A stretch of 63,245 nucleotides of DNA, counting the filler, from Pseudomonadota bacterium (GTDB taxonomy: Bacteria; Bdellovibrionota_F; JAHFAK01; JBDREC01), in NCBI GenBank assembly GCA_043820105.1. It is 4 parts of 4 records of this genome, joined end to end, with 100 filler letters (N's around TTAATTAATTAA, not from the genome) between each part and the next. Parts side by side here need not be neighbours in the genome. Positions count along the whole stretch, not along the records: positions 1 to 29,429 come from JBDREC010000092.1; 3 more parts are not named here. One strand, written 5' to 3'. Position numbers and translations under genes: made by a program. Below, in pieces: positions 8,745-62,094 of the stretch. Under the pieces are notes generated by a model. The model had not been told where the DNA came from, ran no database searches, and worked only from the letters and a program-made list of their open reading frames with translations. Position 1 is the stretch's first letter. Every line of letters begins with the position of its first letter.

Positions 8745-9635
8745 TTAAAAAAAGTTGGAGATTAAATAATATTCATAAAAAACTGTTAATAAAACTGCAA
8801 TTATTGATATGATTATGCCTGCTTTTATCATATCTTTAATTTTTATAAGCTCAGAGCCATAGGCAATTGCATTCGGTGGTGTACTTATAGGCAAGGCCAT
8901 TCCATAGGATGCACAAATTCCAGTAACAATAGCAATAAGCGCTGGATTGCCTGGAAAAAGTGAAATAGAAAGAGGAACAAGTAAGTTAGCGCTAGCTGTA
9001 TGGCTCATAAAAGTCCCCATGATTACTGTTACAGTTCCAAAGATTAGGGCAATTGTCAAATAGCTAAACTTATTTAAATCTAAAAATGAAATTATATAAT
9101 CACTTAATCCAGTGCTTGTTATAGCAATGCCCATTGAAATTCCACCACCAACTAAAATTAATATTTCCCAGGAAATATCTCTGAAATCTCTTTTCCCACT
9201 GATCCTTGCCATAAGAAAAACTAGCATTGGAATTAATGCTATCAATGAAGAATGAATTCCATGAATCGAATCTGTTAGCCAAAGTAAAATAGTTATGCAA
9301 ATCGTAGAATAAATTAATATGTGATGCTTAGTCCTGCTATCATCAACTAGAATTTTTTCTAAATCAAGTTTCTTAACTTTTGGAGGAAATAATATTAATA
9401 AAATTCCCCATAAAACAAATATCAATACAAGCATAGGTGGAAAGGCAGCGAGCATCCATTTTATGAAACTTATATTTATTCCTTTATCCGAAAGAAGGCC
9501 TAAAACAATAGCATTTGGAGGAGTACCTATAGGAGTTGCTATGCCACCAATATTAGCTGAAAATGGAATGCCTAATAAAAGTGCTTTTATTATATTTGAT
9601 CCCTTTGGAATCTTTTTAACAATAGGTAAAATAGT
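8745..9635 (-). pseudogene. DASS/SLC13 anion symporter, 5'-truncated
   Basis: Frame extends beyond the ORF-track start through SANIGGIATPIGTPPNAI to stops at about 9636; second repeat motif FMSHTA...PISTPPNAIAY; N-terminal part absent. Confidence 0.8.
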
Positions 9636-19230: not shown

Positions 19231-21393
19231 TTACCAGCAATAAAAATAAGAATCTGGAATTTCAAATGATTGAGATATGATAAATTCAATATCATCGATT
19301 TGATTAACCATTATGCCACCCTCTGAAAGGGTGTAGATATAATCTTCAATGAAGTGACTTCTGCTTGGTGATAAAGTGTAATATGTATAACAGTTATCTT
19401 CAGGAGGGCTTATAAAATCAGCGTGAGAGATTATCCCAATTTCTTCAAATCCATTTTCAATTGTGACATTGTAAACATAGATGCCTGATAATATATCTGA
19501 AGATCCATAATCCCAGCTATATAAAGGTATAGCTAAAATATTTTTTGTTGGAAAATATGAAAATGCTTTATGATTGTAAAGTGCTTCTGAATAAGTCCAG
19601 CCTGTGCCAATAATTTCTTCTGCTTTAATTGTTGGATTTGCAAAATCACTAACATCAAATATTGAAAGTTTAATTTCGCCTGTTAATCTTCCGTCATTAT
19701 CCGCTACTTGACCTATTGCCAAAATATGATCAGCATCCATAGCTTGAAGATATGTAGAATATCCTGGCATTTCCAGTTCTCCGACTAAAGAAGGAGCTGT
19801 TGGATCGCTTAGGTCAATTGTAAATAAGGGGTCAGTTCTTTCAAAAGTTACTAAAAAGCCTTTATCTTCCACAAAGCGTGCTGCATAAATTTCTTCTCCA
19901 GGTGCTATGTCATTTATTTCTCCAACTTTTTCCAAGACTCCATTTCCATTGTTTTTTAAAACAAAAACATGATTTTTCTTTTCCTCATCTGCTTGCTGGC
20001 TATCCCACCAGCTCCAAAAGGTGAATCTGTCTGTTGTTGTAGCTACACGCAAATAGCCATCATGCTCATCCATTGAAAATTGATTTAAAATGTAACCCTC
20101 AACTTCTCCGCTAGCAGTGTATTCAACACTTGCTTCAGCACTTTTTAACTCGAATTCATGAATAGCAGAATAATCGTTAAAACTTGAGTAAAGACTATAA
20201 TACCAAAAATACCAAGCATATGAGCTTTCAATATAAAGCTTGTTTTCAGACATAAATACAATATCAGCATCAGCTATTAGGCTCACAGTGTTTTGCATAT
20301 CACTTGATTTGCTTGAATCCAGTGAAACAATAGTAAATAAACCAAAGCTATTTGGTGTTTGGGGTTTGTAAATGTTATTGCATGCTGTTAATAATGCTGC
20401 TTCAGAGTTATCTTCTATATAAAGAGGAAGGAAATCAGTAATATCTAGTGCGTCAATTATATCTAAATTTTCCTGTCTAAGTTCTTCATAGTCCTTGGAA
20501 AGACTGCCTGTATCACAATTATTACTATCATAATCATAATAATCCCAATAACTGAGATAGGTGTCAATTCCAAGGTCATAAGTTGAAATGCTATGCTCTA
20601 AGACTATATATACATTGTCACTAATTCTTCGTGAAGTGTTGTATTGACCCTGATAAAAAAGTTCTTTTGTTAAGCTTAAGCTTTCCTTATTTGAAATATC
20701 CAATATAGTGACTTTCGTGACATAATAATTATTTTCAAAGAGACTGGAAATATCTTCATTTGTATTTTCTGAGCTTGAACTGCCACCATTATCATAATCA
20801 TAAGCGATGTCTTCTGAACCCAGACTTGTTTCATATGAATATATGTTTGAAAAGATTATGGCTTTATTATCAGTGATGAACATTTCAAGCGCTTCACCTT
20901 CAAGTTCATAGGTGGCAAGTTCAGTTGTTTCACTAGCTGGCCAGGCTTTTAAAAGGCGAAAGCTATTTCCAGCAATTGCATATAAATAATCGCCATCTGT
21001 TTTAAAAATATCAGCCTCATCTACACCATCAACTTGAGTGTTTGTCTCAGAATATTCATTATCACTATCAGAAGATCTTGATTGTGTATCAGAAGATTCA
21101 TTCGCGTCATCAGATGTTGTATCTGCTCCTGATAATTCAGCTGTATCTTCTGCATATATTTCAACATCACATCCATTTTCAATCTGTCTATTGATTTCAT
21201 TTTCAACATACTTTGTTAAAAGGTCTTTATAGTAGTTTTCAAGGTCTTGGCAAGATTCTAATAAGGATAGTTTGTAACCAAGTGTTTTTCCAACAGTGTC
21301 ATCAGTATTATCATCATCATTGCCCAAAAAAGGGAAATTACATGAGGCTGTAAAAAATAAAAATAATAGGATGATTATAAATTTTATCTTCAC
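19231..21393 (-). CDS. Secreted beta-propeller domain lipoprotein
   Basis: YSETNTQVDGVDEADIFKTDG, LNQFSMDE, LVTFERTDPLF, PGYSTYL; GTG start at 21393 with GGAG; lipobox TASC. Confidence 0.85.
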   Translation of the reverse strand: MKIKFIIILLFLFFTASCNFPFLGNDDDNTDDTVGKTLGYKLSLLESCQDLENYYKDLLTKYVENEINRQIENGCDVEIYAEDTAELSGADTTSDDANESSDTQSRSSDSDNEYSETNTQVDGVDEADIFKTDGDYLYAIAGNSFRLLKAWPASETTELATYELEGEALEMFITDNKAIIFSNIYSYETSLGSEDIAYDYDNGGSSSSENTNEDISSLFENNYYVTKVTILDISNKESLSLTKELFYQGQYNTSRRISDNVYIVLEHSISTYDLGIDTYLSYWDYYDYDSNNCDTGSLSKDYEELRQENLDIIDALDITDFLPLYIEDNSEAALLTACNNIYKPQTPNSFGLFTIVSLDSSKSSDMQNTVSLIADADIVFMSENKLYIESSYAWYFWYYSLYSSFNDYSAIHEFELKSAEASVEYTASGEVEGYILNQFSMDEHDGYLRVATTTDRFTFWSWWDSQQADEEKKNHVFVLKNNGNGVLEKVGEINDIAPGEEIYAARFVEDKGFLVTFERTDPLFTIDLSDPTAPSLVGELEMPGYSTYLQAMDADHILAIGQVADNDGRLTGEIKLSIFDVSDFANPTIKAEEIIGTGWTYSEALYNHKAFSYFPTKNILAIPLYSWDYGSSDILSGIYVYNVTIENGFEEIGIISHADFISPPEDNCYTYYTLSPSRSHFIEDYIYTLSEGGIMVNQIDDIEFIISQSFEIPDSYFYCW

Positions 21394-21461
21394 AATAAAA
21401 CTCCTTTGTATTTTATTTATTATATTAATCATAATAAAACTAATTATGTTAGTCAAAAACA

Positions 21462-22808
21462 TTAAGCTTCATGAGGTAAGGGTCTTCTTTTGGGTCTGAA
21501 ATAGTGTCTGGGTGAATAATCAATTAAATCTGAAACTTTGCTCATGTAAATACAAGCATATCTTTCGATTTGATTAGCTATTCTGCTTGGTTCTTGCCCA
21601 GCTCTCATTAAAGGTCCCCAGAATTTATTGAAATTTTTTTCATATTCAACAATTAAAGATGAAATTTTTTCATCTATATTTTTTACTTTTTTAAAAATTG
21701 CATTTGATTCTGCATCGCTTTGTTTTTTAAATAAGAGTTGTTCCAAGGCTTCTTTTTCAATCATAAGCTTTGTTATCATTTCATGATTTTTTTGGCCTTT
21801 ATTTATTGCATTAATTTCTTCAGCGATTTCTTCTACTACTAGAGCCGTTCTCCAATTGCAAGATTTCTTAAGAGTTACCACATCTCCATAGATATGATCT
21901 CCCAGATATAGAATCTCATCTCCTTTTAAACCTAAATACTTTTCTACTGAAACACTGTTTCCTCCCTGGAAAACGCCACTTTCTAAGTTTCCAAAATGAT
22001 TTGTCATGCTAGCGTCTGAAATATTTACTTTGAGAAATTTGCGATTTGAAGTAAAAAAACTAGGTTTTTCTGATTGAGTAATAACTAAATCAAAAATATC
22101 AAGCCAGGTTCTGTTTTTATCAAGAAATGAATTTATGGTGTAATCCATTAATAATTTTGTGTAATGATAATCAGAATTAGTTATTATTTGCAAAGATTTG
22201 CCACTTGCTTTTAATTTTTCAAGGACTTTGACTAAGTTTTCATCCTTTATAATATATTTTTCAGTATTTTTTTTAACTTTATCTTTTAATGATCCATCAA
22301 TATGAGCTAAATCAATCATTTGAAAAATATCCATTGCAAGATCAGCATAATTGGGCTTATAATCTGAAAACAAATTGGAATTTGAATCAATAAAATCTAC
22401 TAATTGCAAATATAAAGAAGAAGCTGATATGGAAAATGTAGTATCAATTGATTCATATCTTTCCTCTCTTACATCAACTGATAGTTCTCTGTAGATCTTT
22501 GATGTATCTTTATAAAAAAGCTGTAGAGAGCCATGATAACATTTTTTAACTTTACCAAATAAACTTAATTTTAGTAAATTACCTAATTTTTTATCAATAA
22601 CCAGGCCCTTAATTACTTTATCATAATCAAATTTGAATTCTAGGATTTGACCTGGGTAATTTTTAATTTCTACAAGTTTTTTTAACATCTCATGGTAAGC
22701 CATGGTTTCAAACATTTTTGAATTATAGCGCACCAAAGTATAGTCCATGTCAAAGCCAATTGCTTTTATCTTTTTAAAATCCAAGACGCGATTAGTGTAA
22801 ATATTCAT
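21462..22808 (-). CDS. HAD-IG family 5'-nucleotidase (cN-II-like)
   Basis: GFDMDYTL motif I, ITNS, KPSFF, YLGDHIYGDV. Confidence 0.9.
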   Translation of the reverse strand: MNIYTNRVLDFKKIKAIGFDMDYTLVRYNSKMFETMAYHEMLKKLVEIKNYPGQILEFKFDYDKVIKGLVIDKKLGNLLKLSLFGKVKKCYHGSLQLFYKDTSKIYRELSVDVREERYESIDTTFSISASSLYLQLVDFIDSNSNLFSDYKPNYADLAMDIFQMIDLAHIDGSLKDKVKKNTEKYIIKDENLVKVLEKLKASGKSLQIITNSDYHYTKLLMDYTINSFLDKNRTWLDIFDLVITQSEKPSFFTSNRKFLKVNISDASMTNHFGNLESGVFQGGNSVSVEKYLGLKGDEILYLGDHIYGDVVTLKKSCNWRTALVVEEIAEEINAINKGQKNHEMITKLMIEKEALEQLLFKKQSDAESNAIFKKVKNIDEKISSLIVEYEKNFNKFWGPLMRAGQEPSRIANQIERYACIYMSKVSDLIDYSPRHYFRPKRRPLPHEA

Positions 22809-22976
22809 AAAATTGATTTCCTTTTTTCGTTTTTATACCTGTTTAACTTGTTAATTCTAATTAATCTAATTTACAATATAAATAATAATCTGTTTTTAAT
22901 ATGCTTTAATGATGACATTCTCATTAAAAGAATATCTTAATCTGAAAATAATAATTCAAGATCGGATTATTTACTT

Positions 22977-23915
22977 ATGGAACAATATTTTATTAATTAT
23001 GCTAGTCTTGATCAGCAACGTTGGATGGTATCTGACAAACCTCGCACAGATGCTTTTGCAAGAGCAATAGCTGAAGTTGTAAAACCAGGTGATTTTGTTA
23101 TTGATGTTGGGGCAGGTACGGGTGTTCTATCTCTATTAGCCGCAAAAGCAGGGGCTAATCGTGTGATTGGTGTTGAACAATCAGAGATAGCTAATTTTGC
23201 AAAAGAACTCATTTTGCATAATAATTTTGATTCTAAAATAGAAATTATTCAAAGTAATGCCTTTAAATTGCAGCTTGATGAGCCTGCTGATTTAATTGTT
23301 AGTGAATGGTTGGGGCATATGGCTTATGTGGAAAACATGTTTCGCTCTGTCATTCATGTTCGTGATGCTTGGCTTAAACCTCAAGGGACCATGATTCCTT
23401 ATTCTGTGGATGTAATGCTAGCTCCAATTGATGATGTGGAATTTTACAATGAGCATGGTCCTGGATATTGGGAAAAAAGCAATATCTATGATATTGATTT
23501 TTCTTGTTTTACACAAAAAGAATTGCAAATGGGGCATTCAAGTAAAATGCTTATTCCTGATAAATTTCTTCTAGCAAAAGGAAAATCTATTCATCACCTG
23601 AATTGTATTGATGCAAAACCTAATGATGAGTGGTGCCTGGGATCAGTTGAATATGAAATTGAGCGTGATGGTATGATAAATGGATTCGCAGGTTGGTTTA
23701 GCTCCTTACTATCCCCAAATGTTATTTTAGATACAGCACCAAATTGTCCACGAACTCATTGGGAACAGACTTATTTTCCATTTTATCCCATGGAGGTAAA
23801 GGCTGGTCAAATTATTAAGCTAGATTATCGAATGGATGAACCTTATGAGGACTCACGTTTAATGGAACTAGCTTTGCGTATTGGTAAGAAAGAAATTAAT
23901 TATATAATTGATTGA
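22977..23915 (+). CDS. Type I protein arginine N-methyltransferase-like enzyme
   Basis: YFxxY, DxxRT, VIDVGAGTGVLS, double-E loop SEWLGHMAYVE, THWEQ loop. Confidence 0.8.
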   Translation: MEQYFINYASLDQQRWMVSDKPRTDAFARAIAEVVKPGDFVIDVGAGTGVLSLLAAKAGANRVIGVEQSEIANFAKELILHNNFDSKIEIIQSNAFKLQLDEPADLIVSEWLGHMAYVENMFRSVIHVRDAWLKPQGTMIPYSVDVMLAPIDDVEFYNEHGPGYWEKSNIYDIDFSCFTQKELQMGHSSKMLIPDKFLLAKGKSIHHLNCIDAKPNDEWCLGSVEYEIERDGMINGFAGWFSSLLSPNVILDTAPNCPRTHWEQTYFPFYPMEVKAGQIIKLDYRMDEPYEDSRLMELALRIGKKEINYIID

Positions 23916-23921
23916 TCAGCG

Positions 23922-23936
23922 GAGCCTGTCTCAAAA
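23922..23936. mobile_element. Possible isolated IS terminal repeat
   Basis: GAGCCTGTCTCAAAA resembles IS1182/IS5-type ends; no transposase nearby. Confidence 0.3.
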
Positions 23937-24106
23937 TAATCACCAAATTTCCAAGACAAGTAAGTAATGTTAGATAATATTAACAAAGCAAAAAAAATAT
24001 AATATTGAAAAAATTTAATTTTATATGTATTTTTCAATAGTTAAAAATAATAACTTTAATTGGAGTGTATTGTCTGAATATTCAAGAATAAATCCAAGGA
24101 GAGAAA

Positions 24107-24820
24107 ATGATAAAATTTAATTTGGAAGATCTGGACGATATTAAACAAAAAGGTTTATACTTGAAGCTCGAGGATTCTACTACTTTAGAGCTTTCCCAAA
24201 GTGTAATAGAAGAAAAATATAATAATTTTATTCAAGATCCATCTTTATTTACAGAGGAAATGAAGGAGATATCACAATTTAGAAAATGTGCTGTATGTCC
24301 ATATAAAGACGATAAAAAGGTTGTTTGTACAGCTTTAAAACCGATAATTCCTTTTCTACATATTGTAGATAAATATGTATCCTTTAATAAGATTTTCGCA
24401 ATCTATAAATATGATGAAACAAAATCATTTGACTTAGCTATAACTGATATGCAAAGTGGAATAAAGTATTTATCTGTTCTTTCTCTTTTTTATTATTGTT
24501 CAGCAGGTCTTAAGTATTGGAAGTATTTTGCGGGTATTAAGCCACTTATGAAAGTTGAAGAGATTGCTATAAAATTATATTTAAATATTTATCAACATTG
24601 TGGTGGAAATAAAAATATGATTGATGATTTGCTTGCTAAATTTATGTTTGATATAAAAATCATTAATAAAGATATTGTACATAGATTAAGACTAATATGT
24701 AAGAACGATGTTTTTTATAATTCTTTTGTAAGTGCCCAGGTAATACCCGAGTTTTTAACACTTGATATTGATGAAATAGTTAAAAAACATTTTATTGAAC
24801 ATGAGAAAAAAGCTTTTTAA
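24107..24820 (+). CDS. Hypothetical Cys-containing protein (possibly DUF6901-like) upstream of sensor kinase
   Basis: CAVCPY...C; AAGGAGA RBS; family call tentative. Confidence 0.55.
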   Translation: MIKFNLEDLDDIKQKGLYLKLEDSTTLELSQSVIEEKYNNFIQDPSLFTEEMKEISQFRKCAVCPYKDDKKVVCTALKPIIPFLHIVDKYVSFNKIFAIYKYDETKSFDLAITDMQSGIKYLSVLSLFYYCSAGLKYWKYFAGIKPLMKVEEIAIKLYLNIYQHCGGNKNMIDDLLAKFMFDIKIINKDIVHRLRLICKNDVFYNSFVSAQVIPEFLTLDIDEIVKKHFIEHEKKAF

Positions 24821-24846: not shown

Positions 24847-27321
24847 ATGGAAAAACATATTAGAAGAAAGATAATTTTTCCTTTTGTGATTATTATGCTT
24901 TTGGTTTCATCAGTTTTATTTTATACAACATATAAGCATGAAGTTGATGATTTAAATGAAAATATTTCGCACAGATCACAAATGATTAAGCATCATTTTA
25001 ATCATTTTCTATTAAAAGACGCTGAAGTTATGAGTGGATTAATGGATTTGCTTGTCCATGATAAAACAATATTAAAAACCTTCGAAGAAAATGATCGAGG
25101 CAAGTTATTAGATTTATCCTTGCCTTTATTTAATATGTTTAAGTCAAAGTATAGAGTAAGTCATTTTTATTTTATTGATACAAGTGGAAAATGTTTTTTA
25201 AGAGTTCATAATCCTGGGAAATATGGGGATGTAATAAATAGATTTACATTTAAAGAATCACAAAAAACTGGAAAGAGTGTTTATGGTATTGAACTTGGAA
25301 TTTTTGGGACCTTTACTCTTCGAAATGTTTTCCCTGTTAAAGTTAATTCAAAAATAATAGGTTACTTAGAACTTGGAGAAGAAATTGAGCATATTTCCCC
25401 GATGCTTAAAGGCTTTTCAGAAACAGATCTTCTTTTTGTAATAAAAAAATCCTTTATAAATAAAGATAAGTGGGAAGAAGGCCTTGAAATGCTCGGCAAA
25501 ATAGGATATTGGGATAATTTAAAAGATTATGTAATAATTGATCAAACAATTCATGATGTATCTTTGGTATTTAAAGAGAAAATAATGTCTGTTGTAGAAG
25601 GAAACTCTAAAAAATTAAATATATATGAAATTGACGATAGAAAATACTCAATATCCAGTGTAAAATTAATGGATGCTGGTGAGCAGGATATAGGTGCTAT
25701 TATAATTCTGCATGATATTACAAAAAATATAATGCAGAAAAAAAGAGATATATTTTTAGTTGGGATAATTTATGTTTTTGGCTTGTTATTAATAGTTGCA
25801 GTTTTCTATATCTATTTAGGAAGGCTGCAAAAAAGCTTGACCATAGCTGGAGAGAAAATAAAAGATGCCAGTCATGTATGGCAAAAAACTTTTGATAGTA
25901 TTTCAGAACTTGTTTTTATTCTTGATAAGGATCACAGTTTTATTAAAGCAAATAAAGCAGCATACGATGTTCTGGGGGTTACGCAGGCTGACCTGGCAGG
26001 GAAGAAGTGCTATGAGGTCATACATAAATCAGATCTGCCATGGCATAATTGTCCCTTTGAAAAGTCTATGAAAGATGGCTTGCCCCACTCAGCTGAGGTT
26101 ATTGATGAAAGTCTAGGATGTCCTTTGTTAGTTAGTACCTCCCCGATTTTTAATGACAAGAATGAAATAATTGGAGGTGTTCATATTGCCAAAGACATTA
26201 CTAAAATAAAAGAATACGAAGAATCATTAAAAAGTGCAAAAGAATATGCAGAACTTATTTTTCAAGTTACACCCAGTGCAATATTTACAATTGATAAAAA
26301 CCAAATAGTTACTAGTTGGAACAAAACAGCTGAAAGTCTAACTGGTTTTAAAAAAGATGAAATGCTTGGAAAAAAATGCACAGAATTTGCATTGTTTCCT
26401 TGTTCAGAAGTCTGTGGCTTGTTTTCAGATAAGCTTGAAAAACCACTTGTTGCGAGAGAGTGTACGATAAAAACAAAAAGTGGGCTAGTTAAAAGTATTT
26501 CAAAAAATGCTGACTTGTTACATGATTCAAAGGGGAATTTCATTGGTGGAATTGAAAGTTTTGAAGATATTACAGATAGAAAGAAAGCTGAAATAGCCAT
26601 CAAAGAAGCCGCTGAAATGAAAACTCAGTTTGCTTCAATGGTATCACATGAATTGAGAACCCCATTAGGGCCAATTAAAGAAGGTGTAAGCATTGTTTTG
26701 GATGGCTTAACTGGAGAGATAAATGAAGAACAAATAGATCTTTTATCTACAGTAAGAAGAAATGCTGAAAGATTAAATAGACTAATAAATAGCGTACTTG
26801 ATTATCAAAAACTGCAAGCAGGGAGAATGAGATTTGATATTAAAGAAAATAATTTAAATAAAGTTATTGAAGAAACTCATAAATCAATGGTTTTAGTTAC
26901 AAATAAAAAAGGATTGGATTTTCAACTAAACTTAGATCAGGATATACCAAAAGTATTTTTTGATAGTGACAAAATAACACAGGTTTTAATAAATTTAACC
27001 AATAATGCTATTAAATTTACTGAAAAGGGGAGTATAAAATTCATTACAAAGTTAGAAAATTATAAAGTTGTTATAAGAGTTGAAGATACAGGGCCAGGGA
27101 TAAGAGAAGATGAGTTTCATAAATTATTCCAAAGTTTCGTTCAGCTTAGTCATTCAAAAGAAAATAAAATCAAAGGAACGGGTCTTGGCTTAGTGATAAG
27201 TAAAGAGATTGTCGAACATCACAAAGGAAAAATGTGGGTAGAATCTGAATTTGGAAAAGGATCTTGTTTCTGTTTTAGTCTTCCAATTAATAGTAAAGGA
27301 GATGAAAAAAATGAGTCATAA
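24847..27321 (+). CDS. Sensor histidine kinase (Cache, two PAS, HisKA, HATPase)
   Basis: Two TM segments, FLRVHNP Cache motif, SHELRTPL, NLTNNAIKFT, DTGPGI, GTGLGL. Confidence 0.9.
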   Translation: MEKHIRRKIIFPFVIIMLLVSSVLFYTTYKHEVDDLNENISHRSQMIKHHFNHFLLKDAEVMSGLMDLLVHDKTILKTFEENDRGKLLDLSLPLFNMFKSKYRVSHFYFIDTSGKCFLRVHNPGKYGDVINRFTFKESQKTGKSVYGIELGIFGTFTLRNVFPVKVNSKIIGYLELGEEIEHISPMLKGFSETDLLFVIKKSFINKDKWEEGLEMLGKIGYWDNLKDYVIIDQTIHDVSLVFKEKIMSVVEGNSKKLNIYEIDDRKYSISSVKLMDAGEQDIGAIIILHDITKNIMQKKRDIFLVGIIYVFGLLLIVAVFYIYLGRLQKSLTIAGEKIKDASHVWQKTFDSISELVFILDKDHSFIKANKAAYDVLGVTQADLAGKKCYEVIHKSDLPWHNCPFEKSMKDGLPHSAEVIDESLGCPLLVSTSPIFNDKNEIIGGVHIAKDITKIKEYEESLKSAKEYAELIFQVTPSAIFTIDKNQIVTSWNKTAESLTGFKKDEMLGKKCTEFALFPCSEVCGLFSDKLEKPLVARECTIKTKSGLVKSISKNADLLHDSKGNFIGGIESFEDITDRKKAEIAIKEAAEMKTQFASMVSHELRTPLGPIKEGVSIVLDGLTGEINEEQIDLLSTVRRNAERLNRLINSVLDYQKLQAGRMRFDIKENNLNKVIEETHKSMVLVTNKKGLDFQLNLDQDIPKVFFDSDKITQVLINLTNNAIKFTEKGSIKFITKLENYKVVIRVEDTGPGIREDEFHKLFQSFVQLSHSKENKIKGTGLGLVISKEIVEHHKGKMWVESEFGKGSCFCFSLPINSKGDEKNES

Positions 27322-28399: not shown

Positions 28400-29290
28400 T
28401 TAATAATCTAAATTCACGCAATAATCAATAAAGTCTTTTTTAAAAGCTTTAATAAGTGGAGATTCATATTTTTCATTTCTTGATATTATATATGCAGGTC
28501 TGTTAATGTTAAAGCCGGGAAGACCCACAAGCTTCTTGTTGTCAAGCTCTGATTTAATATACATTTTTGCAACAAAAGAGACACCAAGACCTTCTAAGAC
28601 ATGTGCTTTGCAAGCTTCCATGTCATTTAGAAAAACATCACCAATATCTTTTTCAGATGGATATCCAAGCTCTTTTGCTATTGATTTTATTGTTCGTGAG
28701 TGTGCTTCAGCATGTGAAAATATTCTAGCTTTATCAAGATCTTTTCTTGTAATAGTTTTTTTTTTAGCCAGGAAATAATCTTTTGAGCAGACCATTAATA
28801 TGTGATTTTCACATAATTTCTGAATTCTTAAAGAATCTCTTTTGCATTTTCCAATAATAATTCCAATATCAGATTTTGCCGTAACTAAGCTCTCCTCCAC
28901 ATATTCTGAAATTTTAGCATCTTTAACAGTGAACTTTGCTTCTGGATATTTATTCCAAAAGAGTTTCAAAAATTTAGGAAAAACATATGTTATAAAACTT
29001 GAAACAGTGGTGATATGAATATGCCCTGTAACCCGCGATTTTCTGTCTGTTATCCAATTGTCTAATCTATCGAGCTCTTGTTTCATGTTTTGACATAAGT
29101 CTAAAAATTCTTCACCAGAACGATTAAGCTCCATACCAGATCTTTTTCTGTTAAATAACGATTCACCAATATAATTTTCTAATATCTTTATTTTTTGGCT
29201 AACACCAGGTTGTGTAATTCGAAGGTTTTTGGACGCTTTTAGAATATTGCCAGTTTTGGCAACTTCGAGAAAAACTTTTATATAATTAAT
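28400..29290 (-). CDS. LysR family transcriptional regulator lacking a canonical start codon
   Basis: Frame extends through HTH YIKVFLEVAKTGNILKASKNLRITQPGVSQKIKILE; only ATT/ATA available before in-frame TAA at 29309-29311. Confidence 0.8.
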   Translation of the reverse strand: MNYIKVFLEVAKTGNILKASKNLRITQPGVSQKIKILENYIGESLFNRKRSGMELNRSGEEFLDLCQNMKQELDRLDNWITDRKSRVTGHIHITTVSSFITYVFPKFLKLFWNKYPEAKFTVKDAKISEYVEESLVTAKSDIGIIIGKCKRDSLRIQKLCENHILMVCSKDYFLAKKKTITRKDLDKARIFSHAEAHSRTIKSIAKELGYPSEKDIGDVFLNDMEACKAHVLEGLGVSFVAKMYIKSELDNKKLVGLPGFNINRPAYIISRNEKYESPLIKAFKKDFIDYCVNLDY

Positions 29291-30090: not shown

Positions 30091-31584
30091 TTAAACTCCT
30101 TCACCGACTTCCTTGTCGCTAAAAGTTTTTCCATCCCATTTAATGAGATATTTTTTATTTTCAACCTTTGTTGCTAAATTAACCGGTCTTTTCCAAATAG
30201 CGGCAATATTTTTCATTGTATCTTGAGCATATTTAAAATCAAGATCCACTCCTTCATGCCTGTGTTTTAATAATAGTTCGCCTCTATTTGCAAAATTGGC
30301 ATCTTCAACCAAAATTATAGGTTGTCCAAAGTTTGTTAGACTAAATAAAAGTTGTTGTTTTACTTTTTCAAAATCTCTGCTAGTTATTTCATATCTGCTG
30401 GTTCTTTTGTTAAAAGCATAAACAAAGAATTTATTTTCCCGACAAAACTCATCCGTAAGAAATTCATCTAAAAAAGTAATGTCATTGTATAATTTTCTAA
30501 CTTCGAATATTTTTTCAATTCCTAAACCAAGCTTCTTATCCCATTTCTTTCTTTGAGCCATATCATCGCAATCATTATACTCTTTACCAAATTTACCTTT
30601 GTCCCATCTGTCTTTAATATCTCTGAAAAGCTCTAAACCAATTTTATAAGGATTTATTGATCCTGGGTTCATTGCAACGGTGCCAGAGTGATGATCAGCA
30701 TAATCAATAACCTCTGAATCATCTAGCACTTTTTCAGTCATAATCCTTGAATGCCAAAAAGTAGCCCAGCCCTCATTCATTATTTTTGTTTGACCCTGTG
30801 GTGCAAAATAATAGCTTTCTTCTCTAACAATTGAAAGAATATCTCTTTGCCAGGGTTCCAGAGGCGCATAGCTCATGAGAAAATTTAAAATATCTTTTTG
30901 TGATTCTTTTGGAAATTTTCCCTTTATCTTATCTTTTTCTACTAGCTCTTTTTTTTGTTTGTCTAAAAAATCATCTGGATTAACAAAGGTATCCATGTAA
31001 TCTTTTGTTTTTATTTTTTTAATTCTAGCATCTAAATCTAATGATGAATGAGGCTCTTCTTCTTCTTGAATTGAACCGCGTTTTATAAATGGCAGATGAT
31101 AATCAATAAGATTTTCAATGGACAAACATTTATCCATAAAATCCTCAACTGGCTCAATTCCAATACGATCGCTGTAGCGTCTTATTCTTGTGCCATGGTT
31201 TGCCATTTCATCAATCATTTTTCGATTTGTTTTAGAAAACCAATAATTATTCTTAAAGAAATCACAGTGTCCGTAAACATGCGCCATAACAAGCTTTTGA
31301 TCAACTTCTGTATTGCATTCTAAAAGATATGCATAACATGGATTATTGTTAATAACCATTTCATAAATTCGAGATAAACCATAGGCATAGCTTTTTGAAA
31401 GTGATTCATATTCCATGCCAAATTTCCAGTGAGGATATCGAGTTGGATAACCGCCATAGCTTGCAACTTGATTTATCATCTCATAGTTCATTACTTCAAA
31501 AATTGTGGGAAAGAAATCAAGACCAAAGTCCTTGGCGATCTCTCCAATTTCATAAGCTAATCTCTTTAACTTTGATAAATCCAA
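30091..31584 (-). CDS. spoVR: SpoVR family protein
   Basis: YPHWKFG, IYEMVIN, HVYGHCDFFKNN, TKIMNEGWA. Confidence 0.95.
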   Translation of the reverse strand: MDLSKLKRLAYEIGEIAKDFGLDFFPTIFEVMNYEMINQVASYGGYPTRYPHWKFGMEYESLSKSYAYGLSRIYEMVINNNPCYAYLLECNTEVDQKLVMAHVYGHCDFFKNNYWFSKTNRKMIDEMANHGTRIRRYSDRIGIEPVEDFMDKCLSIENLIDYHLPFIKRGSIQEEEEPHSSLDLDARIKKIKTKDYMDTFVNPDDFLDKQKKELVEKDKIKGKFPKESQKDILNFLMSYAPLEPWQRDILSIVREESYYFAPQGQTKIMNEGWATFWHSRIMTEKVLDDSEVIDYADHHSGTVAMNPGSINPYKIGLELFRDIKDRWDKGKFGKEYNDCDDMAQRKKWDKKLGLGIEKIFEVRKLYNDITFLDEFLTDEFCRENKFFVYAFNKRTSRYEITSRDFEKVKQQLLFSLTNFGQPIILVEDANFANRGELLLKHRHEGVDLDFKYAQDTMKNIAAIWKRPVNLATKVENKKYLIKWDGKTFSDKEVGEGV

Positions 31585-31585
31585 G

Positions 31586-32689
31586 CTACTTACCCTTTCC
31601 CAAGAATACTTTTATTGATTCAAATATTTTAGATTTGTCTTCTATTTTGCTCATTGCAACTTGCTCATTATCAACAAAATGTTTTTCAATATCATTGTAA
31701 AACTGACCGCTTCCATATTTACTTTCAACCTGGCCATAGCAAAATAAATTTGCAGCTGGAATAAGCTCTTCTTTTAATAAATTCATACAAACAGTGGTGT
31801 CATCACCTGACCAATTATCACCATCAGAGAAATGAAAAAGATAAATATTGTAATCCATGGGATTATATTCAGTTGTAATCAAGTGATGGCAAAGCTTATA
31901 AGCTGAAGAAATAATAGTGCCGCCAGATTCTTTAGTGTGAAAAAAGGTCTCTTCATCAACTTCTCTTGCTGTTGCATCGTGAATTATAAACTTTCTATCA
32001 ACACCCTTGTACTGTGATTTAATCCAGGTATCAATCCAGAATGCTTCAATTCTGACAATTTCTTTTTGTTCTTCACCCATTGATCCTGAAACATCCATCA
32101 TGTAAATAATGACAGCGTTGCTTTCTGGAACTTTATGCATTTTCCAGGAACGATACCTTGTGTCTTCTTTAACTGGAATGATTATTGGATTGCTTGGATT
32201 ATAAGCGCCACTTAAAATCTGTCTTTTTAAAGCTTCTTTGTAAGTTCGCTTGAAATGTCTTAATGATTCTGGACCTGATTTATGAATCCCTGTATATTTT
32301 GTTTTCAAAGTATGAATATTTTTCTTGCCCTTTTTATCAATACGAGGAAGCTCAAGTTCTTCGCCCATGATTTCAGCAAGCTCTTCTAAAGTAACATCCA
32401 TTTCTAAAACATGCTGTCCAGGCATATTTCCAGCTTTTCCTTCACCTTCTTGAGGTTCACCTCCAAGTGGTTGTCCAACTTGTCCCTCTCCTTGACCCAC
32501 ACCACCTTGCTGTTTTTTGCCATATTTAAACCTGGGTATGTCTATGTGAGGAATAGGAATGGAAATAAGTTTTTTTCCCTGCCTTCCAATGAGTTCACCT
32601 GTAGACATATACTTCTTAAGGTTTTCTTTTATTTTTCCTCTAACGATCTGTCTAAATCGCTGATGATCTGAATCAATTTTTAAAGGCAC
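31586..32689 (-). CDS. yeaH: YeaH/YhbH (DUF444) vWA-like protein
   Basis: [22 protein letters not shown]; between prkA and spoVR. Confidence 0.9.
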
Positions 32690-32698
32690 CTTTTTCTC

Positions 32699-34789
32699 CT
32701 ATTGCTTCACATCACCACGTGCAAAAATAGATGCAACATAATTCAAAACATCAGTCGCGCAAATATCACAATATCCATAGTTTTTAATCATTCTACTTTT
32801 CACAATATCAATTTTTTCCTGAGTTTCTTTGTCCACAACAGATGAAACTAAAGTTGTAAGTTTAATCGAATCTTTTTGATCTTCAAAAAGTTTAAGTTCC
32901 AATGCCTTATGGAGTCTTTCATTTGTTTTATAATTAAACTTTCTCTCTTCCACGGCAAGGGCACCAATATAATTCATAATTTCTCTTCTAAAATCATCTT
33001 TTCTAGACTCAGGAATTTCAATTTTCTCTTCAATTGATCTCATTAATCTTTCATCTGGCTCTTCATCTTGACCAGTATATTTGTTTCTAACTTTTTCTTT
33101 TTGTGTATAAGCTTTTACATTATCAATATAGTTAGAACATAGTTTTGAAATTGCATCTTCATCAGCACAAATTGCCCTTTGAACTTCATTTTTTGTAACA
33201 TCTTCATACTCAGATCTAACAACATTAATCAGCTCAAGATATTTTTTTCTCAATTCTTCTGTTGCTATTAAAGAATGGTTTTTCAACCCGCCACCAAGCT
33301 CATTTAAAACCATAAATGGGTTTACGCAAGTGCCTGCTTTGTCACTAACAAGAGCATTAGAGATTTTATCTTGAATGTATCTTGGTGAGATACCTTCCAT
33401 ACCCTCTCTTTTTGCTGATTTCCTGAGTTCTTTAATTGTATCTTCAGTAAATCCAGTTAATGTCTTGCCATTATAGAGTTTCAATTTTTGGAGCATCGTA
33501 ATTTGAGCTTTTTTAGGCTCTTCAAGCCTTGTTAAAATCGCCCACATGGCAGCCATTTCAAGAGTATGAGGTGCAATATGTTTTCCTCTAACATGTTCTT
33601 CATTAAAATCTCTTTCATATATTCTGATTTCTTCAGCTAATCTTGTAATATAAGGAATATCTATTTTTATTGTTCTGTCTCGCAGGGCTTCCATGAATTC
33701 ATTGTTCTGAAGTTTTTTATATTCTGGCTCATTTGTATGCCCAATAATTACTTCATCTATATCTGTTTGAGCAAACTTTTTTGGTTTAACAACATGTTCT
33801 TGTGAAGCACCTAAAAGGTCATATAAAAAGGCCACATCAAGCTTTAAAACTTCAATAAATTCAATTAGACCTCTGTTGGCAATATTAAATTCACCATCAA
33901 AATTAAATGCCCTGGGATCTGACTCTCTTCCATAGATAGCAATTTTTCTATAATTTATATCGCCTGTTAATTCTGTTGAATCTTGATTTTTTTCATCTTT
34001 AGGTTGAAAAGTTCCAATTCCTACTCTGTCTTTTTCTGAAAGAAGTAATCTTCGAACTTTAATGTTCTTAATAAGCTGTGTCCAATCCCCTTTACATTTC
34101 TCCATTAAAAGCTTGTAAACCTGTCTGCAAGCAGGACACAGATCACCTTCAATAAATATTTTTTTTTCTTCTGGCTTATCAATATTAAGTTGGGCTAAAA
34201 CCTTTTTCCTCATATCAAGGGGAATTAAGTGCAAGGGTTCTTCATGCATAGGACATGGCATTTCATTTTCAGTAATTATCTTTTCATCCTTATACCCATC
34301 AATTAGTACCCAGGAGTAAGTATACAAGGCCCCGGCTTCGGTTCTTGAATAGGCTTGCAAGCCTTTTTTTAGCAACCTCACAATTGTACTTTTTGAACTT
34401 CCTACAGGTCCATGTAAAAGCATTACTCTTTTTTCAGTACCATACCTTTTTGCAGCTGACTTAAAAACATTAACAAGTCTCATTAGAGGAATATCTAGAC
34501 CATAGATAGAATCTCTACCATTTTCAAAGGGATCTTGAAAAAAAGGATATTTAAACAATTTCTTTTTAACATCAATATATTCTTCAACACCATAAGAAAT
34601 AATCATATTGTAAATTCGTTGAAAGGCTGTAGATGTAACTTCAGGTCGCTTTCTTACTATTTCTAAATAATCTTCAAAATCACCTTCCCAATGCAAGTTT
34701 TCATATTGTTTAGTGTCCTGCCCATCTTTTATAAGCTTAAATATATTGTCTTGCTTAGTAGTTTTTGCAGTTTTGCCTTTTTCAGCCAT
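32699..34789 (-). CDS. prkA: PrkA/YeaG AAA+ serine protein kinase
   Basis: [31 protein letters not shown]. Confidence 0.95.
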
Positions 34790-34909: not shown

Positions 34910-37237
34910 TTATTCCTGGGCTCTACTATTTTGCCCAATTAAAACTTCTCTTTGGCGAACACCATCACTTGGTCCAACAATGCCTTCTGCTTCCATTTTT
35001 TCTATCATTCGAGCAGCTCTGTTATAACCAATTCTTAATCTTCTTTGAATCATTGAAATAGAAGCCTTTCCAGTTTCAGATACAAACTCTACGGCTTTTT
35101 TATAAATCTCAATATCCTCATCAAATTCATCAAAATTCATCTCAAAGCCTTCAGAAGAATATGCTTCTTCAACAAGCTTAACCTCTTTATATTCAGGAGC
35201 TTTTTGGTCTTTTAAAAAGTTGACAACATCTGCAATTTCTCTATCTGAAATATATGTACCATGATGTCGATCAAGCTTTGATGTTCCAGGAGGAAGATAA
35301 AGCATATCCCCTGACCCAAGTAAACTTTCAGAACCAATTGTATCAAGAATTGTCCTTGAATCATATTTTGAAGCCACTTGAAAAGAAATTCTAGCCGGAA
35401 AGTTTGCCTTAATAAGACCAGTAATAACATCTGTTGATGGTCTTTGTGTTGCAAGTATTAAATGAATACCAGAGGCTCTGGCCATTTGAGCAAGGCGAGT
35501 TATTAATTCTTCAATTTCCTTACCAGCTACCATAATAAGATCAGCGAGTTCATCTACAATAACTACAATAAATGGCATCTTCACAAGCTCATTATTTGGA
35601 GAGTTCTCAATTAAATACTGGAGACCAATGGACTCAAGCTCTTTTTCTCTTTCTTGCAGGGGTAATTTGTTAATTGCATCAATCTTCTTATTGCACCCAT
35701 TAATATTTCTAGCTCCTAGCTTAGACATAAGATTATATCGCTCTTCCATTTCCTTTGTAGCCCAGCGCAGAGCAGCAACAGCTTTTTTTGCATCTGTAAC
35801 AACAGGCAAAAGCATATGCGGTATTTTATTATAAATAGAAAGCTCTAACATTTTTGGATCAATCAAAATAAATCTCAAAGTTAAAGCTGTATGAGAATAT
35901 AATATTGATGTAATTACAGAATTAATAAATACAGATTTTCCTGAACCAGTAGCTCCAGCCACAAGCAAATGAGGCATTCTACAAAGATCATCATAAACAG
36001 GAGATCCTTCTGTGTCTTTTCCAATTACAAAGTTAATTTTTGAATCATCTGGTTCAAATTCAGTGTTTTTTATCAAATCACTAAAAAACACTGTTTCTCT
36101 TCTGTTATTAGGTATCTCTATTCCTACAACAGACTTACCAGGTATTGGAGCAATAATTCTGATAGATAAAGCTCTCATGGCCATTGCCAAATCATCACTT
36201 AAAGATACAATTTTATTAAGTTTTATTCCAGGCGCTGGTTCAAACTCATACATGGTAATAATTGGTCCTGGTTTAATTTCAGTAATTTTTCCTTCAACTC
36301 CAAAGTCAGCAAGCTTTTTTTCAACTAGTCTCGAGTTTTTAACTAAACTTTCATCATCCACTTTTATTGTGCCCGGAGGAGGAGTATCCAATAAAGACGC
36401 AGGTGGTAATTTATATCCATAATCACTGTCAATAAAAGGCAGTTTATTTTGAACTGGTTGTTTCTTTACCTCTTTTGCTTGAGCTTGTTTTCTGGTAACC
36501 TTTTTAACAACTTTTTCTTCATTATTACTAGGCAAGATTACTTCTTTTATTTCTGAAATAAAGTTTTTAGAAAGTATTTTGCGATCTTTATGTTTTCTTA
36601 TTAATAGGTTCTTTTTAATGATAATTGCTTGAAATGTTTTTAAAACAAATTCAAAAACTGAAAGCACTACGAAGGAAATGATTAAATAAAATGAAAACTG
36701 AAAAGTAAGCAATATTCCAATTGATAAAAACATGAACAAGAGTATTAGACTTCCTACATATCCAAAAAAAGCAAAAAATGCGGAAGTAATGCTTACACCA
36801 ATTATACCTCCAGACTCAATAACAGTTCCATAAAACTGCAGCTCAGGATATAGGGCTGAACACAAGGAAGAGATACTAAAGAGCAAAAAAATAAGCCCCA
36901 TGAAACGCATTCCAACAAAATTAATGGGTCTTTTAAAAAATAGCATTAGTCCAAAAACATAAATTAAAGCTATTAAAAAGTAAGCTGATAAGCCAACTGT
37001 TTGCATTAGAATATCAGCAAAATAAGCACCTAAAATACCAGTAAGGTTTGAGACATTATTATTAATTTCAAATTTATTAACCCAAATAGTACTAATAGAA
37101 GGATCGTGAGGATTATAGGTCACAAGTGAAAATGTACAAAAAATTGCTATACCTAAAAGCAAAAGGCTGACAATTTCTCTAAAAGAGCCAGTCAAGTGAA
37201 ACCTTGTTGTATTTAATTTTTTCATTGATTTAGTCAA
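34910..37237 (-). CDS. ftsK: DNA translocase FtsK
   Basis: N-terminal TMs, MPHLLVAGATGSGKS, ATQRPS, gamma domain IGYNRAAR. Confidence 0.95.
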   Translation of the reverse strand: MTKSMKKLNTTRFHLTGSFREIVSLLLLGIAIFCTFSLVTYNPHDPSISTIWVNKFEINNNVSNLTGILGAYFADILMQTVGLSAYFLIALIYVFGLMLFFKRPINFVGMRFMGLIFLLFSISSLCSALYPELQFYGTVIESGGIIGVSITSAFFAFFGYVGSLILLFMFLSIGILLTFQFSFYLIISFVVLSVFEFVLKTFQAIIIKKNLLIRKHKDRKILSKNFISEIKEVILPSNNEEKVVKKVTRKQAQAKEVKKQPVQNKLPFIDSDYGYKLPPASLLDTPPPGTIKVDDESLVKNSRLVEKKLADFGVEGKITEIKPGPIITMYEFEPAPGIKLNKIVSLSDDLAMAMRALSIRIIAPIPGKSVVGIEIPNNRRETVFFSDLIKNTEFEPDDSKINFVIGKDTEGSPVYDDLCRMPHLLVAGATGSGKSVFINSVITSILYSHTALTLRFILIDPKMLELSIYNKIPHMLLPVVTDAKKAVAALRWATKEMEERYNLMSKLGARNINGCNKKIDAINKLPLQEREKELESIGLQYLIENSPNNELVKMPFIVVIVDELADLIMVAGKEIEELITRLAQMARASGIHLILATQRPSTDVITGLIKANFPARISFQVASKYDSRTILDTIGSESLLGSGDMLYLPPGTSKLDRHHGTYISDREIADVVNFLKDQKAPEYKEVKLVEEAYSSEGFEMNFDEFDEDIEIYKKAVEFVSETGKASISMIQRRLRIGYNRAARMIEKMEAEGIVGPSDGVRQREVLIGQNSRAQE

Positions 37238-60932: not shown

Positions 60933-60951
60933 TTTTCCTCCGCGGGATTTT

Positions 60952-61045
60952 AGGCTTTGGCGAGTGGTCGGGCTTATAGAATATTTCTATTTACCGTTGC
61001 GGGACAGCACCGGATTCTCACCGGATTTTCCTCTATCCAAGCCAT
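60952..61045 (-). ncRNA. Cobalamin riboswitch
   Basis: Minus strand AGAGGAAAA-TCCGGTGAGAATCCGG-TGCTGTCCCGCAACGGTAA...AAGCCCGACCACTCGCC (B12-box). Confidence 0.9.
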
Positions 61046-61065
61046 TAGGTTTCAAAGTTGTTTCT

Positions 61066-62049: not shown

Positions 62050-62094
62050 ATTCTTATTTTTGCAAAAAAATCATCAAAAGTAAAGGGTAATTCC

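Follow-up and report, generated by a model that had tools for sequence, protein, structure and literature searches.

A bacterial gene with the signature of type I protein arginine methyltransferases, in a clade apart from the eukaryotic enzymes

Arginine methylation is generally presented as a eukaryotic modification, the work of protein arginine methyltransferases (PRMTs). Here we analyse a PRMT-like gene at positions 22977–23915 (plus strand) of a stretch of bacterial DNA, referred to throughout as the window, which comprises 63,245 nucleotides in four joined parts from the assembly GCA_043820105.1 (Pseudomonadota bacterium). A reading of this DNA made from its letters alone (the sequence-only reading) had proposed that the gene carries the full motif set of type I PRMTs, and that it represents either an endogenous arginine-methylation system or an effector acting on a eukaryotic host or prey. 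The complete type I signature is indeed found in this bacterial gene, as the motifs, the fold and the predicted dimer are all present, and the gene lies in an all-bacterial clade that is separate from the eukaryotic enzymes.

Results

Architecture of the PRMT-like gene

The open reading frame (ORF) is complete and uninterrupted, with an ATG start and 312 codons followed by a stop, and it encodes a core-only methyltransferase without an N-terminal targeting or adaptor domain. Every motif quoted in the sequence-only reading is present in its translation. From the N terminus, these are YFINY (the YFxxY motif; residues 4–8, nucleotides 22986–23000), the M17..D20..R23-T24 helix motif, motif I VIDVGAGTG (residues 41–49, 23097–23123), post-I VIGVE (residues 63–67, 23163–23177), the double-E loop SEWLGHMAYVENM (residues 109–121, 23301–23339), in which E110 and E119 are separated by eight residues and followed by M121, motif III RDAWLKP (residues 129–135, 23361–23381), the arm stretch YWEKSNIYDIDFS (residues 164–176), GFAGWF (residues 236–241) and the THW loop THWEQ (residues 260–264, 23754–23768).

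These motifs are distributed over four structural elements, all on the plus strand. The N-terminal helices (residues 3–34, 22983–23078; modelled at 3–8, 11–18 and 21–34) hold both YFINY and the M..D..RT motif, the helix that in PRMTs closes over S-adenosylmethionine (SAM) and the substrate arginine. They are followed by a Rossmann-type SAM-binding domain (residues ~40–142, 23094–23402), to which Pfam class I methyltransferase models match over residues 29–145. The C-terminal β-barrel (PRMT_C; residues 143–312, 23403–23912), with strands running from 143–151 to 305–311, is interrupted by a dimerization arm that carries GPGYWEKSNIYDIDFS (residues ~154–189, 23436–23543) and is modelled as a helical insert in the β-domain, with helices at 154–160, 164–167 and 177–184.

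No hydrophobic stretch was found at the N terminus: the largest 15-residue Kyte–Doolittle mean among windows starting within the first 30 residues is 1.05. This value, together with the assignment of the N terminus to catalytic helices in the model, bears out the earlier statement that no signal peptide is seen. The protein is acidic (isoelectric point (pI) 4.88; family median, 5.00).

A divergent intergenic region of 168 bp (22809–22976) separates the gene from a 5′-nucleotidase gene on the minus strand, and presumably holds the promoter of the PRMT-like gene. Promoter-like hexamer pairs occur at 22848–22877 and 22924–22952; over the interval 22700–24200, promoter-like sites as a whole were at chance level (10, versus 7.7 ± 2.7 in shuffled sequences), and the same scan found no terminator-like site.

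Homology to PRMTs and the PrmA label

The sequence matches PRMT1-class enzymes over nearly its full length, at E values between 2e-38 and 4e-36, in the profile comparison that had been suggested from the motifs. Among sequences in the PDB, 77 distinct chains matched at E ≤ 0.001 with phmmer, the best being CARM1 (E = 2e-38, 135 bits, query residues 3–280), followed by PRMT3 (3.8e-37, query residues 4–304) and by PRMT2, PRMT6, PRMT1 and PRMT8 (6e-37 to 4e-36). Type II and III enzymes scored far more weakly (PRMT7, 1.3e-17; PRMT9, 4e-13), and both Pfam models for PRMT5 remained below cut-off (PRMT5, 20.2 versus 22.9 bits; PRMT5_C, 23.8 versus 30.3 bits); these scores do not place the protein with PRMT5, PRMT7 or PRMT9. 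The Pfam PRMT_C domain (PF22528) was detected at residues 146–294 (E = 7.2e-12, 46 bits; cut-off, 27).

The distinction from PrmA made in the sequence-only reading also holds. The Pfam PrmA model (PF06325; E = 1.1e-11) matches residues 29–114 only, the Rossmann part, through profile positions 153–237 of 296, and the NCBIfam PrmA equivalogs reach 22–33 bits against cut-offs of 183–327 (TIGR00406, 29 versus 183.15 bits; NF001785, 32.8 versus 188 bits), with no NCBIfam model of any kind reaching its cut-off. That the protein is a PRMT by fold and by homology we regard as near certain.

Predicted fold and homodimer

An AlphaFold2 model was built on a 30-sequence family alignment and reached a mean predicted local distance difference test (pLDDT) score of 94.4 and a predicted template modelling score of 0.90. 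The model begins with N-terminal helices, continues into a Rossmann domain and ends in an all-β C-terminal domain, a helical insert occupying residues 154–184; the double-E loop lies between the strand at 104–109 and the helix at 122–132. The β-barrel, the absence of which would have spoken against the assignment, is thus present in the model as well as in the PF22528 match. The closest structures found with Foldseek in the PDB are PRMT3 cores (8shr, 2fyt and 1f3l; template modelling (TM) score 0.91–0.92, root mean squared deviation 2.0 Å over ~315 columns, E ~1e-34); CARM1, PRMT2, PRMT6 and Trypanosoma PRMT1 come next, and superposition extends over the full length on PRMT3, CARM1, PRMT2 and PRMT6.

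Prediction of the homodimer gave a score of 0.78, compared with 0.00 for the best of three controls. Of proteins solved as pairs of one chain, 20 of 30 attain the mark set for this score, as does 1 of 23 proteins solved as single chains. Across runs, contact agreement was at least 96% and the pLDDT of the partner at least 91. In the predicted interface, arm residues 159–189 face residues 10–28, 48–57 and 74–82 of the other copy. This head-to-tail pairing of arm and SAM domain is the arrangement found in PRMT1 and PRMT3, and the stretch that had been noted as resembling a dimerization arm coincides with the helical insert at 154–184 from which the interface is formed. A canonical arm-mediated homodimer is therefore predicted by the model, with the reservation that PRMT dimers have already been solved and the result may reflect memory of them, that is, likeness rather than binding.

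Conservation of catalytic residues

The family alignment comprised the window protein and 29 of 120 listed homologues that are 42–71% identical to it. Seventeen positions named here are invariant in all 30 sequences: M17, D20, R23, T24, G45, G47, G49, S109, E110, W111, L112, G113, E119, M121, T260, H261 and W262. A start of the form M-E/D-x-Y-F occurs at the equivalent position in all 29 aligned homologues that have the N terminus. The arm residues G161, G163 and W165, in a ‘GPGxW’ stretch, are likewise invariant in the family alignment and are specific to this clade.

The same catalytic positions are invariant across the bacterial and eukaryotic PRMTs aligned, the latter set consisting of mollusc and spider PRMT6-like proteins, a tick PRMT3 with a C2H2 zinc finger and an amoebozoan sequence. 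In PRMT1, the arginine of the RT pair binds the SAM carboxylate, two glutamates bind the guanidinium group, and a His–Asp pair completes the site. Two methionines flanking the active site are the determinants of type I enzymes, type II having phenylalanine; the corresponding residues, M17 and M121, do not vary within the family or among the aligned eukaryotic type I sequences, and they make up the type I pattern.

A bacterial clade separate from eukaryotic PRMTs

Against the bacterial paralogues from the genomes examined, the window protein scored 135–166 bits, compared with 119–135 bits for the PDB-listed chains of eukaryotic type I PRMTs, and its best relatives are bacterial, at 42–71% identity versus 30–32% to eukaryotic sequences. 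Names carried a taxon for 6 of 30 representatives, of which two were bacterial (Planctomycetota and Myxococcota) and four eukaryotic (Dreissena, Ceratiomyxa, Ixodes and Uloborus).

Two trees were computed. The first (FastTree) had 164 rows: besides the window protein, these were 11 homologues out of the 29 aligned, 142 of 149 representatives (P0241–P0389) and 10 of 12 genome paralogues; 7 representatives shorter than 285 residues and the paralogues L011 and L017 were left out. In this tree, the window protein falls within a 16-row, all-bacterial clade (Shimodaira–Hasegawa (SH)-like support, 99), and all labelled eukaryotic sequences fall within a separate 18-row clade (support, 99). The second was a quick tree (IQ-TREE, LG+C20+F+G4) of 50 rows picked to represent each clade, in which the window clade (14 rows) is again separate from the eukaryotic clade (11 rows), with SH-like approximate likelihood ratio test (SH-aLRT) values of 99 and 98, respectively, and the nearest neighbour of the window clade is a bacterial clade containing the Planctomycetota sequence (88). 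The window clade thus does not group with the eukaryotic type I clade but forms a bacterial sister lineage within the PRMT superfamily; this is the outcome of the phylogenetic comparison suggested in the sequence-only reading.

Both trees exclude a placement of the window gene nested within eukaryotic PRMTs; as they are unrooted, with the outgroup taken from the other half of the first tree, they leave the direction of the deep history open. An all-bacterial clade that is separate from the eukaryotic one argues against recent transfer from a eukaryote.

A further locus in a 9.4-Mb bacterial genome (L015; G150:C1:3448106–3449008) lies inside the otherwise eukaryotic PRMT clade in both trees. 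Its Pfam PRMT_C score of 135.6 bits is of eukaryotic grade, compared with 46–66 bits in the clade of the window protein, and it could be either the closest bacterial sister of eukaryotic PRMTs or the product of a eukaryote-to-bacterium transfer.

According to a 2012 paper, eukaryotic PRMTs derive from within a bacterial radiation (PMC3417536). In both unrooted trees, several bacterial branches stand beside the single eukaryotic clade, which fits this claim.

Distribution and naming of the bacterial family

The description of the family as essentially eukaryotic, on which the sequence-only reading relied, was overstated: a word-indexed search returned at least 181 proteins (E ≤ 0.001, among 1366 candidates), and a phmmer search of 1.84 billion cluster representatives returned 11,088 at E ≤ 1e-3, 5,630 at E ≤ 1e-10 and 601 at E ≤ 1e-30. 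The best 120 of the 181 word-search matches are nearly all 311–312 residues long and 42–71% identical to the window protein. Names among the matches listed include Bdellovibrionales, Deltaproteobacteria, Myxococcales/Polyangiaceae, Opitutales/Puniceicoccaceae and several Pelagicoccus species, with further orthologues under Verrucomicrobiota names and many from environmental metagenome-assembled genomes (MAGs). The homologues P0055, P0089 and P0097, from named Pelagicoccus species, are 44–46% identical to the window protein. Contigs carrying family members are as long as 7.3 Mb, and orthologues were present in four bacterial genomes examined. PRMT_C clusters of 307–326 residues in the ESM Atlas belong most commonly to Myxococcota, Acidobacteriota, Actinomycetota and Gemmatimonadota.

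Among the matches listed, the commonest name given is ‘50S ribosomal protein L11 methyltransferase’. For some members, JGI/NCBI names already read ‘type I protein arginine methyltransferase’ or ‘protein arginine N-methyltransferase 1’, and bacterial relatives were already noted in 2012 (PMC3417536); the expectation of an undescribed system therefore also went too far. The gene is neither unique nor wholly undescribed, and the bacterial branch is computationally recognized. Within the PRMT superfamily, the window gene belongs to a bacterial clade that is old and patchy in its distribution, and whose members are mostly misannotated as PrmA. In 14 well-known control genomes PRMT_C was not found, an absence that may be the reason why the family has gone unnoticed.

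More distant PRMT-like genes, many of them matching at full length, are more widespread, at 74 of 301 sampled genomes (E ≤ 1e-20, not all full-length) in the phylum of one genome examined (G001) and 7 of 201 sampled genomes (E ≤ 1e-40) in the phylum of another (G003). Orthologue-bearing genomes also carry such distant paralogues (G001:C101:42464–43273, G002:C514:16238–17077 and G150:C1:8675516–8676346); these lie in longer open frames of 465–477 residues, one of 1010 residues. Many metagenomic relatives have N-terminal extensions of ~100 residues that match no Pfam domain; in ten proteins scanned, the extensions contained no Pfam domain except the PRMT3 zinc finger in eukaryote-type sequences. 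A Pseudomonas match (L004; 38% identity over 51 residues) was discarded as spurious; the same scan of genome contigs with the single window protein gave three real loci.

Genomic setting and assembly

The window carries genes for FtsK, PrkA/DUF444/SpoVR, a dCache-PAS histidine kinase, a LysR-type protein, DnaK/DnaJ, RelA/SpoT, HemA, ResB, a MiaB-like radical-SAM enzyme, a cysteine synthase and a pilin-like protein. These housekeeping genes, along with an adenosylcobalamin (AdoCbl) riboswitch, confirm that the gene stands among bacterial genes. The PRMT-like ORF has a GC content of 0.360 (window gene mean, 0.326 ± 0.026), and its GC content at third codon positions (GC3), 0.220, matches that of its neighbours (window mean, 0.216 ± 0.030). 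In codon-usage distance it takes rank 25 of 28, with DnaJ and two other genes ranking above it.

Two contigs from read run X1, matching without a mismatch at 22435–22919 and 22908–23086, tile from the 5′-nucleotidase gene into the start of the ORF. The read-run contigs are short and of low depth, and because X1 may be the source sample itself, this tiling is weak support for the placement of the gene. No contig covered the interior or the 3′ side of the ORF, or its junction with the downstream gene, a gap that carries no weight in either direction. Runs with matching pieces (≥99%) are labelled as groundwater (X1 and X2) and biofilm (X3) metagenomes.

Among the 8000 candidates sharing most words with it, the FtsK protein (34910–37237, minus strand) has best matches that are only 45–49% identical, under the names Thermodesulfobacteriota, Geobacteraceae and Syntrophaceae; the PRMT-like protein has relatives of up to 71% identity. 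From the FtsK identities, the host therefore seems to be a poorly sampled lineage of low GC content.

Neighbours, GC3 and both trees exclude eukaryotic contamination, which the sequence-only reading had named as a possible source of the gene; the PRMT-like gene is native to a bacterium.

Immediately upstream, the divergent neighbour (21462–22808, minus strand) is a full-length cN-II-type 5′-nucleotidase (PF05761, E = 1.3e-143), of a family that is mainly eukaryotic. Two ‘eukaryote-like’ genes thus adjoin, and the pairing is not kept at three orthologous loci (L001, L003 and L019). The next gene (19231–21462, minus strand) encodes a 743-residue Beta_propel protein (PF09826, E = 5.5e-141) with an LVIVD repeat match and an N-terminal hydrophobic segment, and its start coordinate is the last base of the 5′-nucleotidase ORF (21462). 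Downstream of the PRMT-like gene lie a 237-residue ORF (24107–24820, plus strand) with a DUF6901 score of 25.9 bits, just under the cut-off of 27, and then the gene for the 824-residue dCache/PAS histidine kinase (24847–27321).

Elsewhere in the window, the PrkA (AAA and kinase domains), DUF444 and SpoVR-like genes form a trio in a row (30091–34789, minus strand). The AdoCbl riboswitch (60927–61056, minus strand; 50.5 bits, gathering score 50) is directly upstream of a 445-residue ORF (59595–60932) without a Pfam match. Two proteins look N-terminally short: a Na_sulph_symp/CitMHS transporter (8745–9455, minus strand), which covers only profile positions 220–460 of 472, and a protein with a LysR substrate-binding domain (28400–29134, minus strand) that lacks a helix-turn-helix in the called ORF; both ORFs may be truncated genes, frameshifts or miscalled starts.

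Discussion

Proposed activity

A mechanism for the PRMT-like protein can be outlined by homology. Two subunits would pair head to tail, the helical arm (residues ~154–189) of each packing on the SAM-binding domain of the other. SAM would be held in the Rossmann domain through G45, G47 and G49, the acidic residue of VIGVE, and R23, and the two glutamates of the double-E loop, E110 and E119, together with H261 of the THW loop, would grip the substrate guanidinium group between them. Methylation, once or twice, of one terminal nitrogen would then give monomethylarginine and probably asymmetric dimethylarginine (ADMA), with the type I pattern of M17 and M121 as the basis for the asymmetric product.

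On the homology, the fold, the conserved catalytic residues, the predicted dimer and the native bacterial setting, and with an acidic protein that lacks an N-terminal hydrophobic segment, we favour a homodimeric type I arginine methyltransferase that uses SAM, resides in the cytoplasm and modifies the bacterium’s own proteins, a statement that, taken as a whole, we hold to be moderately likely. Its parts differ in strength. Catalytic competence is highly probable; endogenous protein substrates are likely; and ADMA is the product that the analogy with eukaryotic enzymes suggests, with somewhat better than an even chance. The broader proposition, that the clade as a whole consists of bona fide bacterial type I PRMTs which place ADMA on the bacterium’s own proteins, and that it represents, together with its sister bacterial clades, the prokaryotic stock of eukaryotic PRMTs, is more tentative and falls slightly short of even. 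Of the two possibilities in the sequence-only reading, endogenous arginine methylation has thus become the best reading, and an effector, for which neither a signal peptide nor a nearby secretion-system family is seen, finds no support in this analysis.

Several observations weigh against arginine methylation of endogenous proteins. The PRMT_C score is modest, at 46 bits compared with 127–147 bits in the eukaryotic sequences scanned. The window clade is separate from eukaryotic PRMTs in both trees, so that proposing a type of product and a class of substrate means reaching across a deep divergence. Orthologue-level matches (E ~1e-143 to 1e-145) occur in 2 of 301 genomes in the phylum of G001, and such a match occurs in 1 of 201 sampled genomes in the phylum of G003, a patchy distribution from which the function would be dispensable and accessory. 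All-against-all BLASTP of the ORFs flanking the gene in the window and at L001, L003 and L019 found no shared neighbour; only the PRMT-like gene itself and one antisense shadow ORF were shared, and the Pfam annotation of the neighbours differs at each of the four loci.

Substrate searches add to this side of the balance. Tracts matching a degenerate DNA pattern for three RGG units were scanned in four orthologue-bearing genomes (G001, G002, G003 and G275) against the reversed pattern, and were no higher than this control in G001 (12/10 versus 16/9) and G275 (52/46 versus 116/168), absent from G003 and slightly above the control in G002, giving no usable substrate lead. The window encodes no RG-rich protein of note, with one weak RG-rich stretch at 61225–62070. 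In a literature search to which most subscription journals did not contribute, we found no characterized bacterial PRMT-fold enzyme and no match joining an arginine methyltransferase with Myxococcus xanthus; the terms ‘bacterial PRMT’ or ‘prokaryotic PRMT’ led to PMC3417536 only.

Alternative explanations

That same source also provides an argument for the alternative that survives best, in which the target is a guanidino group outside folded proteins, be it on arginine itself, on a small metabolite or on a peptide natural product made with or without the ribosome; the enzyme would in that case be a ‘peptide methylase’ instead of a regulator of proteins. PMC3417536 places the closest bacterial sisters of PRMTs as ‘peptide methylases’ in secondary-metabolite operons, which speaks against protein methylation and makes a non-protein substrate possible. 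The patchy, accessory-like distribution of the family and the failure to detect RGG-type substrates, in the window and in the four orthologue-bearing genomes, fit such a role. However, no gene for a non-ribosomal peptide synthetase (NRPS), dioxygenase or amine oxidase flanks the PRMT-like gene in the window or at L001, L003 and L019, and the protein keeps the β-barrel, the dimerization arm and the N-terminal helices of the protein-substrate groove within a predicted PRMT1/PRMT3-like assembly. A peptide or small-molecule target is therefore in our view unlikely, if still worth considering.

More doubtful is an effector that enters other cells, whether a eukaryotic host, eukaryotic prey or bacterial prey, and there methylates proteins such as histones or RNA-binding proteins. 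Precedents for methylation of host histones by bacterial proteins reportedly include the Chlamydia SET protein NUE and Rv1988. The strongly eukaryote-like sequence, the names of predatory lineages (Bdellovibrionales and Myxococcales) on some close homologues and the adjoining cN-II-type 5′-nucleotidase gene, with its mainly eukaryotic family, would suit this explanation, and the sequence alone leaves room for type III, IV or VI secretion signals. By contrast, there is no signal peptide or extra targeting domain, the N terminus being itself the catalytic helix; a Pfam scan of window genes found no secretion-system family; many environmental MAGs carry orthologues, as do named Pelagicoccus species; and the clade is old and bacterial rather than a recent eukaryotic acquisition. 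We consider delivery as an effector very unlikely.

The database label, which would make the protein the ribosomal L11 lysine methyltransferase PrmA, or else some other class I methyltransferase of an ordinary kind, draws on the NCBI names of many homologues and on the Pfam PrmA match at 1.1e-11, but that match is confined to the Rossmann core, the equivalogs are far from their cut-offs, the C-terminal half, a PRMT β-barrel with the THW loop, lies outside it, and the best PDB matches by sequence and by fold are all PRMTs; this explanation is hardly credible. Least probable, to the point of being negligible, is that the gene is a eukaryotic contaminant, sits in a chimeric assembly or came from a eukaryote very recently, as the eukaryote-like sequence and a metagenome assembly with thin independent coverage might suggest; against this stand the single uninterrupted ORF in a 63-kb window of bacterial genes, GC3 and codon usage inside the range of those genes, the tiling of X1 contigs from the upstream gene into the ORF start (with X1 possibly the source sample), the closer identity to bacterial relatives and the well-supported split from the eukaryotic clade in both trees.

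Significance

Methyl-arginine has been seen in bacterial proteomes, in a field that has been called understudied (10.1101/2023.06.29.546327; PMC8466066). With intact catalytic residues, a confident fold and a predicted dimer, the PRMT-like family provides candidates for the missing writers of this modification. If arginine methylation of endogenous proteins is correct, a regulatory modification of eukaryotic style would exist in free-living bacteria, and a single characterized member would be the first PRMT-fold ‘writer’ of bacterial arginine methylation. As the family is routinely labelled ‘L11 methyltransferase’, the activity of one member would also correct many annotations. The trees, although unrooted, bear on the origin of eukaryotic PRMTs.

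Comparison with known systems

PrmA, the source of the usual database name of the family, shares with the window protein the class I Rossmann methyltransferase domain and motif I. It provides no full-length match, and the β-barrel, double-E loop and THW loop of the window protein are those of PRMTs.

The bacterial ‘PRMT-like peptide methylases’ have been described in secondary-metabolite operons or as fusions to peptide synthetases (Aravind, Abhiman and Iyer 2011, as cited in PMC3417536). They resemble the window protein in being bacterial members of the PRMT radiation, and they support the view, with which both trees agree, of a superfamily that is mostly bacterial and has the eukaryotic PRMTs as a single branch; the window gene differs in standing alone in a housekeeping region with no conserved neighbours.

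Other bacterial PRMT-like clades, including the Planctomycetota-named representative P0243 (225.5 bits to the window protein), the Myxococcota paralogues L007–L018 and N-terminally extended proteins of 385–440 residues, share the PRMT core and PRMT_C. They form distinct clades, and many of their members have extensions of ~100 residues or frames of up to 1010 residues.

The closest comparison is with the eukaryotic type I PRMTs (PRMT1/Hmt1, PRMT3, CARM1/PRMT4, PRMT6, PRMT8 and PRMT2), which have the same domain order and helical dimerization arm, the same YFxxY, M..D..RT, GxGxG, E-x8-E-x-M and THW motifs, and a fold that superimposes on the model with TM scores of 0.91–0.92 for PRMT3, and whose head-to-tail dimer is also predicted for the window protein. 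By contrast, sequence identity to these enzymes is only 26–32%, the window protein is a core of 312 residues that lacks zinc-finger, SH3 and PH-like adaptor domains, it scores lower on PRMT_C (46 versus 127–147 bits), and it belongs to a separate all-bacterial clade with its own invariant G161, G163 and W165.

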